Of a DNA stretch of 60,413 bases, positions 10,875 to 17,845 are shown one piece after another. A program made the position numbers and the translations under genes. The DNA is taken from positions 1-60,413 of the forward strand of contig JAGORV010000006.1 of assembly GCA_018062625.1 (NCBI GenBank), written 5' to 3'. The notes below the pieces were generated by a model, which ran no database searches, had not been told where the DNA came from, and saw nothing but the letters and a program-made list of their open reading frames with translations. Source of the stretch: Candidatus Woesebacteria bacterium (GTDB lineage Bacteria; Patescibacteriota; Microgenomatia; UBA10105; UBA927). Numbering within the stretch: the stretch's first letter is position 1; each line of letters opens with the position of its first letter.

Positions 10875-12755
10875 TTATTCAAGCTTTTTTTTGGGGCCAC
10901 CCATAAGCGCCTGAAACTCATCGCTTTCTATGGTTTCTTTCTTCACTAAGGCTGCGGCAACTTTATCTAATTCTTTTCGGTGTTTCTTGAGCACTTCTAC
11001 CGCTTTCTTATAACCAGTATTTATGAATCGTTGAACCTCTAGGTCAATCTTTGCCATCATATCAGCAGATATCTGTTGTTGATCCATAAACTGCTTCCCC
11101 CACTCGGTCACATCATTTTGGGGACCAAAGTTTACTGGTCCCAATTCACTCATGCCAAATTCCATAACCATATATTTCGCGATTCTGGTTGCCTGATCAA
11201 TGTCGTTTGATGCACCGCTTGTTTGTTCGTTAAATATCACTTCTTCTGCGGCTCTGCCTCCCATGGTCATAGCAATTTCGTCTATAAGATGAGATTTTGT
11301 CTCATGTAATCGATCTTTTTCTGGTGGAGACATGGTATATCCCAACGACATACCGCGAGAGACGATGGAGATGCGATGAACGATATCAAGGTATGGACTG
11401 TAGTAACTCACTACTGCATGTCCGGCTTCGTGATATGCTGTCATCTTACGATCCAAATCGCTTTGCAAACGCTTTTTTTCGGGACCTAATTTTACCTTTG
11501 TCGCTGCTTCTTCAAGATCCAGCATATCGATTGCTTTTTTATTTTCTCGAGCGGCAAGGATGGCTGACTCATTCAGCACGTTCTCTAAATCTGCACCAGA
11601 AAACCCTACTGTTCGCTTCGAAACTCGATCCCAATCTACAGATTTTTCAAATGGTTTACCCTTGGCATGTATTGCTAAAATTGCTTTTCTTCCTTCCATG
11701 TCAGGAAGATCTAAAACTACTCGTCTATCAAAACGCCCAGGACGAAGGAGTGCTGGATCCAATAAGTCTCCACGATTTGTAGCAGCAACGAGAAGCACAG
11801 CGGTATTTGGTTCAAATCCATCCATTTCGACCAATATCTGATTGAGTGTTTGCTCACGCTCATCATGGCCACCCATAATCCCTACACTTCTCATGCGACC
11901 AATAGCGTCTATTTCATCGATAAAAATTATTGCAGGCGCGCTCTTTTTTGCCTGTGCAAACAAATCACGAACACGTGCGGCTCCCACTCCCACGAGCATT
12001 TCCATAAATTCACTACCTGCGATACTAAAAAATGCGGTATGTGCTTCACCAGCCATAGCCTTGGCAAGCATAGTCTTTCCTGTACCACTTGGACCCACAA
12101 GAATTACGCCTTTTGGCGTACGTGCGCCTAATGCTTTGTATTTGGCAGGATTTTTCAAAAAATCCACTACTTCTTCCAATTCTTTTTTCGCCTCATCAAC
12201 TCCAGCAACATCTGCAAATGTCACCTTTGGCAAATCCTTGTTGAAGATTCTCGAATTTGATTTCCCAAATGAAAACACATTATCTTGTGCCCCTCTCGCT
12301 TGCCGAAATAGAAACAAGAAAAATGCAACGGTTAATACCAAAGGCAACACATTGGAAATAAGCCCCATCCACACTTGACTCGCGCTTAAATCCTTTATCT
12401 TTATCTCTACACTTTTAGAATCTACCCCAGCGGATTCTAAAAGCTTATACATAGAATCTTGCGGTTCTTTGTGAGATGTAGCTTTAACACCATCCTTATA
12501 AACAACAGTGAGCTTCGTCTCTTCCACTTCTATAGAAGTAACTTTTCCCGATTTAACATCATTTAAAACAGCGGAAAGCGGTTTGTCAGAAAGCAAGGAT
12601 GCCTGTCCACTCAAGCTTCCGATAATAGAAAACAAAAAGAACATCACAAACAAGCCAATAACTATGTTCTTGAGATTGAGCTGCATCTGGAATTGGAACA
12701 TTTTCTTTCCTTTTTTTCCAGTATGTTTGGGTTGAGGTACGTGTTTATCTGCCAT
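10875..12755 (-). CDS. ftsH: ATP-dependent zinc metalloprotease FtsH
   Basis: Two TMs, [27 protein letters not shown]. Confidence 0.97.
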
Positions 12756-12828
12756 AGATGCGCGTGTTGAGCGTCAAGTATAGCATGATTCATGACTCAT
12801 TTCACCCTTGTCTATAAGAAGCGAGAAA

Positions 12829-14208
12829 CTATCGAATTTTTGCACCAATAGGTGCACCATCCGCAGGAACAAAAAGCGGTTTACCATCTTGCCCATCCAC
12901 AGCGAGAATCATGCCTTGTGAAAATTCATCAAGCATCTTTCGTGGCGCAAGATTGGTGATGAACAAAAATTGTTTCCCAGCAAAATATTCTGGAGTGAAA
13001 CCAAACAATCGAACACCCGTAAAGATGATGCGTGGCTTTTCTTCTGCAACATTTACTACAAGGCGAATAAGCTTCTCGCTCCCCTCTTTGTTCGTCGCCT
13101 CCAACACCTTTCCCACCTTTACCTCAACGCGTGCAAATTCATCGATAGAGATCGTATTGCCATGTTGTGGCTTAGGATATTGAAAAAATGAGTACTGGGT
13201 GGTGAGGCCCATTGCATCACGTGCAGATTGCATGGTTTTGGTGGCAATCGCCATTGCTCCTGCTTGGCCTTTTTGCAATATTCGGGTAACTTCCGCTGGG
13301 TTTGCTTTAAGCTCTTCATATGCGGCACGAGCAGGAGCAAAATAGGTAAGCAAACTTTCACACAAATATTCTTTCACTTCTACATCAGATACTTCTCCAC
13401 TTACATAAGAATGCTTTAAGCTTTCCACCTTTTTCTTATCGCCGAAGAAATCGAGATACACAAACACCATGTTGCCTTCAATATGTCCTTTATCAGTTAC
13501 ATGTTTACGAGTCGGATCGGTAAATGTACCATTTACTTGTTTTCGTATGACTTCCTCTGATTCAAAAAGCGCAATAATATTTCCTATGCTTTTACTCATC
13601 TTGCGCTGACCATCAGTGCCAAGCACCACTGCCACTTCTTCAGGTATGTAGGCATCGGGCATTTTAAACACCTGCTTTTTATAAATCTTGTTGAATCGAT
13701 CGGCAATATCACGTGTTATTTCTATATGTTGTTTCTGATCCTTTCCTACTGGAACGAAATCTGGCTGATATAAAAGAATATCTGAAGCCATAAGCATTGG
13801 ATAACTAAACAACCCCACGTTGATATCGTCCTCCAATACATCTTTTTGCAACTTGTCTTTGTACGCATGAGCACGTTTCAAGAGCCCAAGGGGAGTTATG
13901 TTGTTGAGGATCGACTGTCCCTCAGTGTGCAAAGGGACATCAGATTGACGAAAAAAAACAATTCTTTCAAATTCTTCACGAGTCAAAAATCCTTTGAGAA
14001 GTGCAAGCTCGTTTAAAATAAGTGTTTCAATATTGTGCTGAAGCTGCTTCTTGTCTTGAATGGTGGTAAGCCCATGAAGGTCAGCAACCATCAGATACGT
14101 CTCATTCGTTTTTGCCATCTCAATAAACTGCCGTACGGCTCCTAAATAATTGCCGATATGCAGGCTTCCATCTCCACTCGGTGTAATTCCAGATAAAAAT
14201 CGTTTCAT
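12829..14208 (-). CDS. trpS: Tryptophan--tRNA ligase fused to a C-terminal Trbp111/CsaA-like tRNA-binding OB domain
   Basis: GITPSG, HIGNY, YPMLMASDILLY, VPVGKDQKQH, KMSKS; tail ISIDEFARVEVKVGKV...TNLAPRKM...SQGMILA...IGAKIR. Confidence 0.95.
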   Translation of the reverse strand: MKRFLSGITPSGDGSLHIGNYLGAVRQFIEMAKTNETYLMVADLHGLTTIQDKKQLQHNIETLILNELALLKGFLTREEFERIVFFRQSDVPLHTEGQSILNNITPLGLLKRAHAYKDKLQKDVLEDDINVGLFSYPMLMASDILLYQPDFVPVGKDQKQHIEITRDIADRFNKIYKKQVFKMPDAYIPEEVAVVLGTDGQRKMSKSIGNIIALFESEEVIRKQVNGTFTDPTRKHVTDKGHIEGNMVFVYLDFFGDKKKVESLKHSYVSGEVSDVEVKEYLCESLLTYFAPARAAYEELKANPAEVTRILQKGQAGAMAIATKTMQSARDAMGLTTQYSFFQYPKPQHGNTISIDEFARVEVKVGKVLEATNKEGSEKLIRLVVNVAEEKPRIIFTGVRLFGFTPEYFAGKQFLFITNLAPRKMLDEFSQGMILAVDGQDGKPLFVPADGAPIGAKIR

Positions 14209-14292
14209 AATTCTCCTTATTGTATACGAACGCTACGCTTTTCGAAAATGTAAATATATTTATATTCCAACCAACCTACAAATCCAATTCAT

Positions 14293-14772
14293 TTATTCAA
14301 ATAACCAACCATCATTAGAGTATCCTTTTGGATTTTGATAATACCCATACTCAATACTAAGATTAGGTATATTAATTGCGAATGCAAAACTTAAATCTGT
14401 ATTGCGCTCCTCCCCTCTGGGCTTTTTTATATATTCGAAAACAATGCCACTTTTATTATATGATTCTTGCGTCGCTTCCCAATGGGTTAATGATCCACCA
14501 ATAATACCAACGCCTCGCATACTTTTTGCAATTGGAAGCTCGTGATTTAATACACGTAATGGCGGGTCATGAAATACAAACAGCCCTTTGGGCACCAAGC
14601 CCACACCAGCTAAACAATTTGATGCGTTATCCGTCATGACTATCGCATTTCGAAATAAATCTGGTCGTATAAGTTGTCTATGACGCGTGCCGATGTGAAA
14701 AGATTTTTCTCTAATTTTTTCAATCTGTTTATTAGTAAATTCAACATGTTTTATTGCAAATTCTCCAATCAT
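14293..14772 (-). CDS. Hypothetical protein, possible CNF1/CheD/NTAN1-like Cys-His deamidase fold
   Basis: 159 aa with strong SD GGAGGT; TDNASNC53 ... FH68DP ... IIGGS. The fold call is inference. Confidence 0.65.
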   Translation of the reverse strand: MIGEFAIKHVEFTNKQIEKIREKSFHIGTRHRQLIRPDLFRNAIVMTDNASNCLAGVGLVPKGLFVFHDPPLRVLNHELPIAKSMRGVGIIGGSLTHWEATQESYNKSGIVFEYIKKPRGEERNTDLSFAFAINIPNLSIEYGYYQNPKGYSNDGWLFE

Positions 14773-14823
14773 AGTTTACCTCCGTTTATCGTAAGTCACC
14801 ATTCACTTTTTACTCTTTTTTAC

Positions 14824-14853
14824 GAATTCATATTGCTGCAGCAACATGAATTC
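14824..14853. repeat. 30-bp near-perfect palindrome
   Basis: GAATTCAT-A-TTGCTGCAGCAA-C-ATGAATTC, one mismatched pair. Confidence 0.85.
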
Positions 14854-14866
14854 CCAACACATGCAG

Positions 14867-15280
14867 TCACTTTCTCTTTTTTGTTTCTGGAACAAGACTT
14901 CCTGCAGCACCAATCAAAAGCCCCAGTAAGCCAATTGCTCCATCTCGCTTTGCACGTGGATTTATCGGATTTTTTGCTTGCAGTTGTGCCAGCTCGTCTG
15001 AATATAGCTTTAGGATTTGGTCTTCCCTAGCTCCACGTTCAACACCAATTACATCATCAAAACATTCAGCTCCAACACTACTACCACCCGAAAACAATCC
15101 TGTCGGATAACACTGCACTTGAATAGAATATTTATGCTGCATTTGTTCAATGTTGGCATCGTGTCTATTTAACTCGGCAAGTAATGTAGTGTTTTTTATT
15201 GCATCCACTGCAGAACCACCAGTAGTCAATAAGCCACCGATAACCAACGCGTTACTAACCACTTCTCTCATATTTTTCAT
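14867..15280 (-). CDS. Hypothetical two-TM protein with a Cys pair in the loop
   Basis: Start placed at ATG 15280 behind SD AAAGGAGGTGA (15286-15296); hydrophobic ends; CYPTGLFSGGSSVGAEC. Confidence 0.75.
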   Translation of the reverse strand: MKNMREVVSNALVIGGLLTTGGSAVDAIKNTTLLAELNRHDANIEQMQHKYSIQVQCYPTGLFSGGSSVGAECFDDVIGVERGAREDQILKLYSDELAQLQAKNPINPRAKRDGAIGLLGLLIGAAGSLVPETKKRK

Positions 15281-15305
15281 AATTTTCACCTCCTTTCTAA
15301 ATCAC

Positions 15306-15329
15306 AAAAAAACCTCCATTACTGGAGGC
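15306..15329 (-). terminator. Intrinsic terminator (attenuator 3:4 hairpin)
   Basis: GCCTCCA-GTAA-TGGAGG followed by T7 on the minus strand; GNRA loop. Confidence 0.8.
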
Positions 15330-15355
15330 TCATCATGCGTGTATATTTTCTTTTT

Positions 15356-15433
15356 TTACACCACGATTACAGACACCTCCAGAATTAGGAGGTTTTGCCA
15401 ATTATTCCCATGTAAACAATTCTTTTGTTTCAT
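15356..15433 (-). CDS. Putative Trp leader peptide (25 aa, W12)
   Basis: MKQKNCLHGNNWQNLLILEVSVIVV*; starts 2 nt after the trpR stop; TGG (15398-15400) lies just before attenuator segment 1. Confidence 0.5.
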   Translation of the reverse strand: MKQKNCLHGNNWQNLLILEVSVIVV

Positions 15434-15435
15434 AT

Positions 15436-15687
15436 TTATACTTGTATGAATCTTCCCTTTTGCAATTCTTTGGAGCCCCGTGTCACTGTCGAAACTCCAA
15501 CACCCATTTCTTTGGCGATAACGTGTTGCGATATACCCGCTTTTAGCTTTTTCACTATTTGCACACGTCTCGTAATCTCTTCTAATTCCCCCTCTGTTAA
15601 TAGTCCTCTCAAAAACAAAGTCATTTCCTCTCTGTTTTTAATTTCTACTAGAATTTGAGATAACTCATTTAACCAATCAGATTTCAT
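15436..15687 (-). CDS. trpR: Trp repressor family protein (TrpR/YerC)
   Basis: LFLRGLLTEGELEEITRRVQIVKKLKAGISQHVIAKEMGVGVSTVTRGSKEL, the TrpR HTH pattern. Confidence 0.88.
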   Translation of the reverse strand: MKSDWLNELSQILVEIKNREEMTLFLRGLLTEGELEEITRRVQIVKKLKAGISQHVIAKEMGVGVSTVTRGSKELQKGRFIQV

Positions 15688-15693
15688 AACGTC

Positions 15694-15727
15694 GTACTAT
15701 TGTACTAGTATAGTAGTACAATGTCAA
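15694..15727 (-). promoter_or_regulatory. Sigma70 promoter overlapped by a TrpR-type operator
   Basis: TTGACA (15722-27)-N17-TACAAT (15699-704); GTACT-N8-AGTAC (15702-15719) inside a 9-bp inverted repeat; extra GTACT half-site at 15694. Confidence 0.85.
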
Positions 15728-15769
15728 CTCCCCTCTTTGAAGAGGTAAGTTATTTGATACAATTCAATC

Positions 15770-16051
15770 ATGAACCTTGGAAAAATCTCTTTTTATGCCA
15801 GAAAAATACATAACTGGAGTCTATTTTTTGTGGTAATACTTGGACTCACTCAAATGATTACTGGGATTGTTATGCGATACCCCATGACATTCGCATTTAT
15901 AGACGAAATAGCGTCAAGAATGCTCCATTTTCAAACCGCGACCTATTTTTCTATTGCCTTTGGGATTCAAATGATTACGGGGCTTATAATGTACCTTACG
16001 CCGTGGCTCTTGAAGAAAATTGCGCAGAGGCCCATTGTAAAAAGTCAGTAA
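15770..16051 (+). CDS. Small two-TM membrane protein
   Basis: RKIHNWSLFFVVILG...HFQTATYF; TACAAT 6 nt upstream. Confidence 0.75.
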   Translation: MNLGKISFYARKIHNWSLFFVVILGLTQMITGIVMRYPMTFAFIDEIASRMLHFQTATYFSIAFGIQMITGLIMYLTPWLLKKIAQRPIVKSQ

Positions 16052-16259
16052 CTCTTCCTTGTAGATTATTATTTTCAGCAAGAGCGTGTTGGATTGCGCC
16101 TGAATTCACACCAATCCTTTCAGCATGCTGTGTTAATTTTTTTACACCAGAGCCCCTTTCACTCTTTGAAGCATGTAAAGCACGAAGTACGGTAAGCCGG
16201 TCCATGGCTTCCATTGTTTTTGGATCAGAGGTAAATGGGCTAAGTTCTAAATCAGTCAT
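15996..16259 (-). CDS. Hypothetical protein (87 aa)
   Basis: Sits directly behind a perfect-consensus promoter; convergent 56-bp overlap with the previous gene. Confidence 0.65.
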   Translation of the reverse strand: MTDLELSPFTSDPKTMEAMDRLTVLRALHASKSERGSGVKKLTQHAERIGVNSGAIQHALAENNNLQGRVTDFLQWASAQFSSRATA

Positions 16260-16266
16260 AGATACT

Positions 16267-16295
16267 ATTATATCCTATAATATATGTTTTGTCAA
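16267..16295 (-). promoter_or_regulatory. Perfect consensus sigma70 promoter, leaderless
   Basis: TTGACA-N17-TATAAT-N7-ATG. Confidence 0.85.
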
Positions 16296-16302
16296 TCCTT
16301 CT

Positions 16303-16332
16303 TTGACCAATAGGAGCTCGATAAGTTATAAT
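16303..16332 (+). promoter_or_regulatory. Promoter of the tRNA pair
   Basis: TTGACC-N18-TATAAT about 20 nt before the first tRNA. Confidence 0.6.
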
Positions 16333-16351
16333 GAATACGTATTTACAAAAC

Positions 16352-16421
16352 CGCGGGGTAGTGTAAAGCAGCACAGGAGGCTCATAATCTCCTAGACTAG
16401 GTGCGACTCCTAGCCCCGCAA
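16352..16421 (+). tRNA. tRNA (CAT), initiator fMet-like, with non-canonical D and T loops; CCA not encoded
   Basis: Acceptor CGCGGGG/CCCCGCA with C1:A72 mismatch; anticodon arm GGAGG-CTCATAA-TCTCC; T arm CTAGG-TGCGACT-CCTAG. Confidence 0.85.
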
Positions 16422-16454
16422 CACAAAAGTAGTCACAACACGCATTTGCCGGTA

Positions 16455-16526
16455 GCCAGCGTAGCTCAGTGGTAGAGCAGTGTCTTCATAAGGCATTTGT
16501 CGCAGGTTCGATCCCTGCCGCCGGCA
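16455..16526 (+). tRNA. tRNA (CAT), elongator Met or Ile2; CCA not encoded
   Basis: GCCAGCG-TA-GCTC-AGTGGTA-GAGC, anticodon loop TTCATAA, GGTTCGATCC T arm; A4:C69 mismatch. Confidence 0.9.
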
Positions 16527-16527
16527 C

Positions 16528-16878
16528 TCAAAAAAACAATCCCCACCATTTTTGCCAATTTACCGTTCGTTCAGTTTCACTAGGTGGCCCACCACTCCTG
16601 CTACCTGCTCCAGGCAATATCACAATAGATTCACCATCTTTCACCAACCCGAGTGTATTTCTTGCTACTTTTTCTGTGTATTCTTCAGAACCTATTTCTT
16701 TGAGTTCTTGAGTCAGTCGAGCGTTATCCTCTATTTTACGATTCAGCTCAACCTGACGCTCTTGCATAATATCGCGCCTATGCCACAAATCCACTATCGT
16801 TCGAAGCGCACTGATGGATAGCCCGAAGCTAATTATAAGGAGGACAAATCGCACGACGCTAAGCTGAGTTGTTTTCAT
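16528..16878 (-). CDS. Septum formation initiator (FtsB/DivIC family)
   Basis: N-terminal TM, coiled coil, EEYTEKVARNTLGLVKDGE. Confidence 0.85.
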   Translation of the reverse strand: MKTTQLSVVRFVLLIISFGLSISALRTIVDLWHRRDIMQERQVELNRKIEDNARLTQELKEIGSEEYTEKVARNTLGLVKDGESIVILPGAGSRSGGPPSETERTVNWQKWWGLFF

Positions 16879-16981
16879 AACTTTGACTCACCATTGCAAC
16901 CATGAACATTCTGTGATATTATAGGCTTCTGATCTGCTTAACGCGCGTCTGCCTCGCAGCTAGCTTTCAGCACCGCATACT

Positions 16982-17845
16982 ATGGCTGTAGATCTAAAAA
17001 CCGCTCACAAGCAATTCGTCGAACATCTTGAATCTCGCAGACGTGCTCGTGCAACTATCGTAGCATATAGCAAAGATATCGAGCAGTTGGTCTCTTTCCT
17101 TGGAAATACTGGTAAAAAAGACATTACTGAGATCAAAAGCGAAGAGCTTGCGGCTTTCTTAAAGAAACTTGCTTCAGACAATTACACCCCAAAATCCGTG
17201 TCACGCAAGATCAATTCCATGAAGACCTTTTACCGATTCTTAAAGGCTTCAGGTATTGTCACTCTCGATCCAGCGGCTGATATCGATCATCCAAAATATG
17301 AGGTCAAACCACCGCGAATATTATCTAAACTTGAATATCGAGCGCTTCGTGATGCATGTCGAGGTGATTTGCGCACATATGCCATAGTAGAGCTTTTCCT
17401 CCAAACTGGTATTCGTATCGGAGAACTAGCAAATCTTATGGTATCTGACATGCTCGATACTGAGTTGCACATATCTTCACAAGAGGGTCATGAAGAACGA
17501 AATGTACCACTCAATCATGCGGCAAAAGATGCGCTTGCATCATGGATGAAAATTCGTGGCACAAGCAGCACCAAATCAGATGCACTTTTTATCACAAAGA
17601 CCGGTAGACCACTCCTTATTCGAAATATCCGTACAGCCATTGATCGATTCTTCAAAGTTGCGGGTATTGAAGATGCAAAAGTAAATGATTTGCGTCATAC
17701 ATTTATCGCCCATCACCTTATGGCGGGAACTGCTATCACCACAATTAGCAAATTAGTGGGACACAAGCGCTTGTCTACTACAGAGAAATATCTGGAGTTT
17801 ATCAAAGACAAACACGTCGAACACATCAAGCTTGACGAGCTGTAA
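16982..17845 (+). CDS. XerC/XerD-like tyrosine recombinase with a partly degenerate active site
   Basis: SAM-like N-domain, TGIRIGEL, NDLRHTF, LVGHKRLSTTEKY. Confidence 0.88.
   Translation: MAVDLKTAHKQFVEHLESRRRARATIVAYSKDIEQLVSFLGNTGKKDITEIKSEELAAFLKKLASDNYTPKSVSRKINSMKTFYRFLKASGIVTLDPAADIDHPKYEVKPPRILSKLEYRALRDACRGDLRTYAIVELFLQTGIRIGELANLMVSDMLDTELHISSQEGHEERNVPLNHAAKDALASWMKIRGTSSTKSDALFITKTGRPLLIRNIRTAIDRFFKVAGIEDAKVNDLRHTFIAHHLMAGTAITTISKLVGHKRLSTTEKYLEFIKDKHVEHIKLDEL

Follow-up and report, generated by a model that had tools for sequence, protein, structure and literature searches.

The region behind a trpR gene on contig JAGORV010000006.1 of a Candidatus Woesebacteria bacterium (assembly GCA_018062625.1) raises the question of whether a member of the candidate phyla radiation (CPR) senses tryptophan (Trp) by ribosome-mediated attenuation. 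The whole stretch of DNA that was analysed, 60,413 nucleotides (nt) long, is called the window. In an initial annotation of its sequence, the region was read as a classical attenuator in which a Trp leader peptide coupled to trpR governs the choice between 1:2, 2:3 and 3:4 pairings of four RNA segments. Our analysis in silico favours this reading with a probability of about 0.8: the element would be a leader-peptide attenuator which senses charged tRNA-Trp through the translating ribosome and is layered on repression by TrpR. The observations behind it concern sequence anatomy, conservation, covariation, spacing and gene associations; it is the conserved leader, the pairings, their spacing and the Trp-related genes behind the element that support the proposal of ribosome-mediated Trp sensing in a CPR organism. 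The mechanism itself is a textbook one, while its presence in CPR bacteria, its modularity, its coupling to trpR and its synthetase cargo would be new. A literature search returned no paper on leader-peptide attenuation in CPR bacteria or Patescibacteria.

Anatomy of the leader element

The element lies on the minus strand, directly behind trpR (Table 1). Two nt past the trpR stop codon begins a short upstream open reading frame (uORF), the trpL-like leader, which lacks a Shine-Dalgarno (SD) sequence. On re-reading of the minus strand, the uORF with its Trp codon, the four segments and the run of seven U residues (U7) were all found exactly at the coordinates first given to them, and the leader of the window locus does contain a single Trp codon. 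Counted from the first base of TGG, segment 1 occupies +7 to +12 and segment 2 starts at +18. This geometry agrees with the proposal that a ribosome stalled at the Trp codon masks segment 1, as its footprint would reach approximately +12, the last base of segment 1, and would leave segment 2 outside. The leader stop codon is located beyond segment 2, within the 5' arm of a hairpin in the spacer between segments 2 and 3; this spacer hairpin is predicted to shorten the loop closed by 2:3 pairing.

Segments 3 and 4 form the terminator, with a GUAA loop as first described. It was recovered by a terminator scan as a hairpin of 9 pairs with a loop of 4 (15331..15310) followed by a T-run, and the scan listed no other terminator-like site on the minus strand between 12500 and 17000. 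The 2:3 antiterminator consists of eight pairs and cannot form together with the terminator. A covariance model of the stretch from the Trp codon to the U-tract, designated R1, has one match in the 60-kb window and no other in the whole assembly.

Table 1. Features of the trpR-trpS region of the window
Feature	Position	Strand	Remarks
Promoter TTGACA-17-TACAAT	15727..15699	minus	11/12 match to the sigma-70 consensus
TrpR-operator-like palindrome, core GTACTAGTAT	15702-15711		overlaps the promoter
trpR, 83-aa Trp-repressor family protein	15687..15436	minus	PF01371, 59.8 bits (cut-off 27)
trpR stop codon TAA	15438-15436	minus
Leader ORF (uORF, trpL-like), peptide MKQKNCLHGNNWQNLLILEVSVIVV	15433..15356	minus	25 sense codons and stop; ATG 15433, TAA 15358-15356
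R1 match, Trp codon to U-tract	15409..15304	minus	88.7 bits, E ~9e-16
Regulatory Trp codon TGG	15400..15398	minus	codon 12, the sole TGG of the leader
Segment 1, ACCTCC	15393..15388	minus	5' arm of the 1:2 hairpin; begins 4 nt past TGG
Segment 2, CTGGAGGT	15382..15375	minus	partner of segment 1 or segment 3
Spacer hairpin between segments 2 and 3	15367..15332	minus	-9.8 kcal/mol
Segment 3, GCCTCCAG	15329..15322	minus	5' arm of the terminator or 3' arm of the antiterminator
Segment 4, TGGAGG, and U7	15318..15306	minus	3' arm of the terminator (15318-15313) and U-tract (T7, 15312-15306)
Fifth GGAGGT	15293-15288	minus	SD of the next gene, 7 nt before ATG 15280
orf137, 137-aa orphan	15293..14867	minus	including SD GGAGGT; ATG 15280; hydrophobic N- and C-terminal segments
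orf159, 159-aa orphan	14772..14293	minus
trpS, tryptophanyl-tRNA synthetase with C-terminal tRNA-binding domain	14208..12829	minus	PF00579 (192 bits), PF01588

Conservation of the leader and its pairings

TrpR orthologues, with identities of 52-90%, occur in 7 of 81 genomes of the same family, a sample which includes one metagenome-assembled genome (MAG) named Candidatus Gottesmanbacteria, and in 2 of the 18 genomes of the genus. In all seven loci, trpR is followed at once by a uORF 21-27 codons long whose Trp is at codon 11-14, and behind this uORF come a hairpin, a spacer, a CCUCC/GGAGG terminator and a U-tract. Besides that of the window (G000), the leader peptides are MNKTQLLSHNSWQHLRILEVSVIVM (G016), MSTYSNVVQTWWQNSQQLESAVLLD (G018), MANIIINSQRWWQNLFREVLM (G072), MKNFDKNHTVNIYWQGLQMVEVCLVMD (G023), MKQNKSVDQSWQSLPNGEVCLVMD (G089) and MKFQFVNEFESWQSFTYVGGFVLV (G085). 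The nucleotides TGGCA are invariant in the leader alignments (A1 and A2). TrpR is 90% identical in the window and G016. Their leaders are scrambled at the N-terminus (MKQKNCLHGNN in the window, MNKTQLLSHNS in G016) but agree in frame, W12, segments 1-4 and stop. In G018, ACCTCC:GGAGGT is replaced by ACTCTC:GAGAGT, which amounts to three compensatory pairs. Tandem Trp-Trp leaders are found in G018 and G072, the two genomes with trpB2 directly behind the element.

A wider set was obtained by scanning one genome per species with the TrpR alignment, which gave 80 trpR loci carrying Gottesman-, Roizman-, Levy-, Daviesbacteria and other Microgenomates names. An ATG-initiated, Trp-containing uORF starts between -15 and +60 of the trpR stop in 50 of 79 loci (shuffled sequences: mean 10.7, maximum 19), and Trp makes up 5.7% of leader residues compared with the ~1.3% expected from composition. 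The full layout with a strong terminator, called type A, is present at 36 loci. Model R1 gives 38 good matches on the sense strand of Microgenomates trpR loci, and in every one of them the TGG at the position fixed in the model shares its frame with an ATG ORF, compared with 0/38 and 1/38 for the other two frames.

The pairings were counted in a model-guided alignment of 32 sequences (A7), a MAFFT alignment of 35 leaders having been set aside for its poor register. Taken together, the 1:2 and 3:4 helices are 94.6% paired, against 44-68% in slid controls, and double changes occur at 12 of their 15 pairs, a level reached by 0/500 shuffles. For 1:2, 91.3% of pairs are formed, with double changes at six of seven pairs; for 3:4, the values are 97.3% and six of eight. 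The 1:2 hairpin and the 3:4 terminator of the initial annotation are therefore both borne out, as are the two features that it had suggested looking for across Microgenomates, a conserved TGG and compensatory stem changes.

The 2:3 pairing is maintained as well. It is 86.4% paired in the 32 sequences, vs 62-65% after a shift by one position; the mean energy of the best 2:3 duplex is -11.9 kcal/mol, vs -7.2 for dinucleotide shuffles of the upstream part; and a locus's own segment 3 fits its own segment 2 better than segments of other loci do in 2000/2000 permutations. The claim of an exclusive antiterminator thus stands with regard to its conservation, but not if it is taken to imply thermodynamic dominance in the window locus (see below).

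Segment 2 starts between +13 and +25 from the first base of the Trp codon (median +18) in 35 of 36 loci. In contrast to this regular spacing, the leader stop varies among the relatives, lying 2-13 codons past the Trp residue, either in the 1:2 loop or beyond segment 2; in 9 of the 36, as in E. coli, it precedes segment 2 and falls within or close to the 1:2 loop. Because the stop position varies in this way, it is the RNA and the position of the Trp codon that are conserved, not the peptide. A single Trp codon is found in 22/36 relatives and a tandem in 8/36, and part of them (13/36 with z < -1.5) have a spacer hairpin. Judged by these comparisons, the arrangement of segments behind trpR is far beyond chance.

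Proposed coupling of the leader to trpR

The coupling to trpR that had been proposed for the window is supported by the relatives. In 30 of the 36 loci the leader starts between -8 and +11 of the trpR stop, in arrangements of the ATGA, ATGnnTAA and TAAnATG types, and an SD-like 4-mer precedes it in only seven, being absent in the other 29. At five loci (L045, L046, L050, L061 and L063), TrpR and the leader are fused in frame at the 3' end of trpR (at ~1750-1790 in L046-L063 and ~1235-1270 in L045). The Trp codon and segment 1 then fall within the C-terminal tail of TrpR, as in ...GSKEIAKGRFSSITEKGWRPPKSGG and ...KGRFSSITEKGWRPPKSGG, each ending at the stop codon, and the repressor ORF itself is the putative leader peptide.

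The window protein aligns to structures of E. coli TrpR over residues 16-76, including the recognition helix with its TRGS sequence (GVSTVTRGSKEL in the window vs GIATITRGSNSL in E. coli). Its sequence is that of a TrpR-family repressor, with putative Trp binding. Palindromes of the type TACTAGTA are present in the promoters of all orthologous loci. The entire 1.07-Mb assembly contains the core RTACTAGTAY a single time, in the trpR promoter, whereas the same pattern read backwards, as a control, occurs 10 times per strand. The TrpR regulon thus seems to be a single unit, and since the operator core is unique in the genome, the repressor and the attenuator would both serve this one unit. Like the leader, trpR lacks an SD, and its ATG is 11 nt from the end of the -10 box TACAAT, a situation repeated in the orthologous loci; for these reasons the mRNA may be leaderless, or nearly so.

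Folding and points against attenuation

The 176-nt region folds with -46.4 kcal/mol, vs -27.4 +/- 3.5 for shuffled sequences (z = -5.4). The evaluated energies of the individual pairings are -10.0 kcal/mol for 1:2, -11.3 for 2:3 and -11.5 for 3:4. The unconstrained minimum free energy (MFE) structure is a nested helix in which 1:4 pairing encloses 2:3 and which likewise ends at the U-tract. This fold exists because segment 1 resembles segment 3 and segment 2 resembles segment 4 (CCUCC/GGAGG). As long as segment 1 is free, segment 4 therefore always has a partner, and termination is expected.

With the ribosome footprint masked, the result is divided. When segment 1 is masked and the RNA ends at segment 3, the MFE structure is 2:3 stacked on the spacer hairpin. 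This is not the case for the full-length RNA, and here begins a series of observations that weigh against attenuation. The masked full-length MFE structure still contains the 3:4 terminator (-26.4 kcal/mol), so that read-through must rest on kinetic trapping of 2:3. Conversely, 2:3 already prevails over 1:2 without a ribosome once segment 3 has been made, so that in the replete state it may be the nested 1:4 pairing that brings about termination. In E. coli, 3:4 is also more stable than 2:3, and the switch is likewise kinetic.

The comparative data have weaknesses of their own. Covariation specific to 2:3 is weak (3/7 pairs, with 6-18 of 500 shuffles reaching the observed values), because segments 2 and 3 are conserved in sequence. 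The pair counts given above are inflated by the phylogenetic relatedness of the loci and by the fitting of A7 to the model. The leader has one Trp codon, compared with at least two in characterised trp leaders, and its sensitivity may be low; as it lacks an SD, its translation would depend on re-initiation after trpR. Directly behind the attenuator stand two orphan genes that show no link to Trp. Finally, a promoter-like sequence inside orf159 (TTGGGA-16-TATAAT, 10/12, minus strand, 14482..14455) could provide trpS with basal expression independent of TrpR and the attenuator.

A further pairing had been suggested between segment 3 and the fifth GGAGGT. The motif is present, but its pairing with segment 3 has no comparative support and the model does not require it; it was dropped because downstream genes, SD distances and context differ among the relatives.

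Alternative explanations

Three other explanations were weighed. The strongest of them, although it is improbable, accepts that the leader and hairpins are regulatory and assigns them another read-out: sensing of free Trp at the stop codon in the manner of TnaC, a switch of opposite polarity, or control of mRNA stability or of translation of the next gene via CCUCC/GGAGG pairing. TnaC is a leader peptide of 24 residues with Trp at position 12, by which free Trp is sensed via the conserved nascent peptide so that Rho-dependent termination is blocked. The window shares with it a Trp-related leader of ~24-25 codons and Trp at codon 12, a likeness that seems superficial: past the Trp codon the peptide varies in both sequence and length, the conserved Asp/Pro of TnaC has no counterpart, and the terminator, with its hairpin and U7, is of the intrinsic rather than the Rho type. 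The TnaC-like reading was rejected for its unconserved peptide past Trp and the intrinsic terminator. Control of translation might draw on the SD/anti-SD character of all four segments and on the fifth GGAGGT as the SD of the next gene, but both the distance and the identity of the downstream SD vary between loci. The lack of thermodynamic dominance of the antiterminator in the window locus speaks for another read-out, as does the presence in other Microgenomates of terminator-less trpR-linked leaders (...GQGLVW at the stop), which suggests that the group has non-classical Trp sensing. What is conserved, however, is the distance from the Trp codon to segments 1 and 2, as the classical model requires.

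Less probable still is a plain intrinsic terminator of the trpR transcript, with uORF, TGG and upstream hairpin present incidentally. A single Trp codon in a uORF without SD would fit this explanation, as would the recurrence of CCUCC...GGAGG terminators in these genomes, the many weak R1 matches across the class and the lack of a matching Rfam family. It leaves unexplained the frame bias of the TGG at the R1 matches, the excess of Trp-containing uORFs over the highest shuffle value and the compensatory changes in 1:2, for which a lone terminator has no need. Nor does it account for tandem Trp codons before trpB2 in relatives, or for same-strand genes with strong SDs that follow without an intervening promoter. 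That the uORF encodes a functional micro-protein, the hairpins being secondary, is hardly credible: a short W-Q-x-L motif does recur in many leaders, but its codons (TGGCAAAACCTyC) coincide with segment 1 and are conserved at the nucleotide level, N-terminal residues differ even at 90% TrpR identity, 2 to 13 residues follow the Trp, and in the five fusion loci the peptide is simply the tail of TrpR.

Proposed mechanism

Ribosome-mediated attenuation, the preferred explanation, entails leader translation, coupling to trpR, kinetic competition between pairings and a direction and size of response, all of which we infer from the features described above. Transcription would start at the promoter controlled by the TrpR operator, which places the attenuator inside the operon, directly behind trpR. 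A ribosome finishing trpR is presumed to re-initiate 2 nt later on the SD-less leader; in relatives with fused genes it would simply continue, because the Trp codon and segment 1 belong to the C-terminal tail of TrpR. In either case, the ribosome translating trpR would report the charging of tRNA-Trp to the polymerase ahead of it.

When charged tRNA-Trp is plentiful, the ribosome would pass TGG-12 and run to the stop codon, leaving segment 1 free. Segment 4 could then pair either locally (3:4, with 1:2 formed behind the ribosome) or in the nested structure (1:4 around 2:3), and with the hairpin abutting U7, RNA polymerase would terminate at about 15306-15310. When charged tRNA-Trp is scarce, the ribosome would stall with TGG in the A site and cover or unwind segment 1, so that segment 2 is the sole free partner as segment 3 emerges. 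The 2:3 helix on the spacer hairpin would form first and keep segment 3 from segment 4, and polymerase would read through into orf137, orf159 and trpS. Most likely, then, the attenuator raises expression of the trpS operon when charged tRNA-Trp runs low. Together, TrpR repression and attenuation would constitute a two-layer control of the E. coli style, responding to free Trp and to charged tRNA, with the repressor gene upstream of the attenuator.

A more specific version of this proposal holds that the sensor is the very ribosome that has just made the repressor, that the element belongs to a modular CCUCC/GGAGG family in Microgenomates, one for which the literature searched gave no description, and that it tunes TrpRS together with two orphan genes. 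The odds for this version appear evenly balanced.

CPR bacteria cannot yet be studied genetically, and attenuators give a hint of transcription-translation coupling in them: since attenuation needs translation close behind transcription, conserved and covarying switches of this kind would be indirect evidence of coupling. The covariance model, in turn, offers a way of annotating operons that respond to amino acids in CPR genomes, most of whose regulators have yet to be identified.

Comparison with known systems

With the E. coli trp control region (RF00513), the window element shares a short leader ORF whose Trp codon or codons lie within or beside segment 1, mutually exclusive 1:2, 2:3 and 3:4 pairings, an intrinsic terminator ending in a U-tract, and a TrpR-operator layer with CTAG-type palindromes in the promoter. 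The textbook logic for E. coli runs from starvation through stalling and 2:3 pairing to read-through (summarised in PMC7755916). The window element differs from E. coli trpL in several respects, and the two are alike neither in sequence nor by covariance model. It is internal and located behind trpR rather than at the 5' end of the operon. Its leader has no SD and abuts the trpR stop (overlapping or fused to trpR in relatives), contains one Trp codon instead of two, and ends beyond segment 2; a nested 1:4 and 2:3 fold is possible; and the cargo consists of trpS and orphan genes. The textbook case would thereby be extended to an attenuator behind the repressor gene and translationally tied or even fused to it, to leaders for which a single regulatory codon often suffices, and to an apparent Trp auxotroph that regulates its synthetase rather than the pathway.

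The closest architecture is that of Chlamydia trachomatis, trpR-IGR (intergenic region, annotated TrpL)-trpBA, in which trpR is the first gene and a proposed leader or attenuator stands before Trp salvage genes. It is resembled in particular by the order trpR-leader-trpB2 of G018 and G072. The 59-aa ORF annotated as TrpL in Chlamydia is described as atypical and unvalidated; its Trp codons are not consecutive, it is expected to attenuate poorly, and the attenuation known there is exerted by YtgR in trans (PMC7755916). In contrast, the window element is compact, canonical and conserved with covariation.

The control of a synthetase gene by termination that responds to tRNA charging is a feature which the window element would share with two other systems. 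Both E. coli pheST, with its pheM leader, and the trpS T-box of Firmicutes are synthetase genes controlled by premature termination in response to charging of the cognate tRNA. While the pheM leader stands at the 5' end and contains Phe codons, T-boxes involve no translation and bind uncharged tRNA themselves.

Two other types of leader were rejected. A T-box has no Rfam match either in the window region or at related loci: a search of 12500-17000 gave no match at E<=1, including RF00513 (Trp_leader) and RF00230 (T-box), and a search of six related loci gave nothing beyond tRNAs and a sub-threshold Phe_leader on G023 (32.6 bits, cut-off 55). A TRAP-binding trp leader of the Bacillus type calls for ~11 (G/U)AG triplets spaced by 2-3 nt, and only five scattered [GT]AG triplets occur in 15280-15440.

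Genes behind the probable attenuator

The Trp-related gene of the window unit is trpS; the cargo is a synthetase with two orphans, not Trp biosynthesis. No Pfam or NCBIfam family was found for orf137 or orf159, nor any homologue by tblastn among all related loci. The SD of orf137 reads GGAGGTG, unlike the SD-less leader. The terminator scan detected no further minus-strand terminator before trpS, and inspection by eye and by scan gave no convincing dedicated trpS promoter in the 84-nt gap 14293-14208. Neither trpB/trpB2 nor trpE was found in the assembly, which is 88% complete, and the organism is probably a Trp auxotroph tuning its synthetase.

In the relatives, trpS is located downstream in 23 loci; it is on the same strand in G016, G018, G023 and ~20 further trpR loci, the latter despite flanks of 1.5 kb. 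Other loci have Trp biosynthetic genes directly behind the element: an anthranilate-synthase-I-like gene at L063 (TrpE models best, 417 bits), the N-terminus of which is common to five more loci, trpB at L067 (TIGR00263, 572 bits) and trpB2 at L061 (NF009057, 702 bits). Also found in this position are TIGR04076 proteins, an Asp/Glu-type racemase and unknowns. Genes behind such leaders are candidates for functions in Trp starvation, among them the two orphans of the window and, in relatives, the TIGR04076 proteins, the racemase and unknown enzymes.

In G016 (L031:4507-6958), the closest relative, the interval between attenuator and trpS holds three genes in place of the orphans of the window, encoding a TIGR04076-like protein, a 359-aa protein without family and a luciferase-like (LLM) oxidoreductase. 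The gene content suggests that the cargo between attenuator and trpS turns over quickly.

The TrpRS proteins of G018 (L032:2853-4754) and G023 (L033:3625-5547) carry an N-terminal YbaK-type editing domain (PF04073) as well as a C-terminal tRNA-binding domain, and in G023 and G085 an Asp/Glu-type racemase gene is found between attenuator and trpS. The YbaK-type domain and the racemase are a hint that Trp is linked to the handling of D-amino acids.

Between the Trp attenuator, which it follows directly, and the gene of a small Zn-ribbon membrane protein, a structured non-coding stretch of ~180-350 nt is situated at L034:1880-2230 (G089) and in the corresponding part of L004/L033 (G023). At L034 it folds with an MFE of -75.6 kcal/mol (z = -4.1) and has no Rfam match even at E<=5. 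Its opening, GTTAGCAAG, is shared by G018.

Other leader types in Microgenomates

Model R1 also detects the same 1:2/3:4 scaffold with other regulatory codons (L121 G290:C6:16457-16562; L128 G338:C154:8640-8739; L124 G382:C34:46172-46273; L126 G053:C1:17483-17589; L127 G280:C23:50862-50961). Cys-Cys-Cys leaders (MNINIIKSCCCTS... and ...NLNCCCSLIC...) stand directly before genes of the cysteine-synthase/CBS type (cysK, 397 bits, above the cut-off), an aromatic-rich leader (..QWYYFYFT..) before a DAHP synthase gene (NF006421, 422 bits) and a ..HWWY.. leader before the gene of a HisC-like aminotransferase; a ..FFFSYFTF.. leader was likewise found. These sequences suggest that classical attenuation serves more than one amino acid in Microgenomates, several in all.

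A second trpR-linked element, called type B, occurs just after trpR at L044, L047, L052, L055, L057, L068, L070, L076, L089, L097, L109 and L116. Its uORF ends in ...(E)GQGLVW[LFG] at the stop codon, with the nucleotides CAGGGGTTAGTTTGG nearly invariant, and a CCCCUG/CAGGGG hairpin precedes the UGG. No intrinsic terminator was found, and an Rfam search of 14 type B loci gave no match.

Many MAG records with Microgenomates-type loci (L037-L039 and others) are titled 'uncultured Gammaproteobacteria bacterium'. These titles look like bulk mislabels, given their contrast with the Gottesman-, Roizman- and Levybacteria names on loci from the same query.

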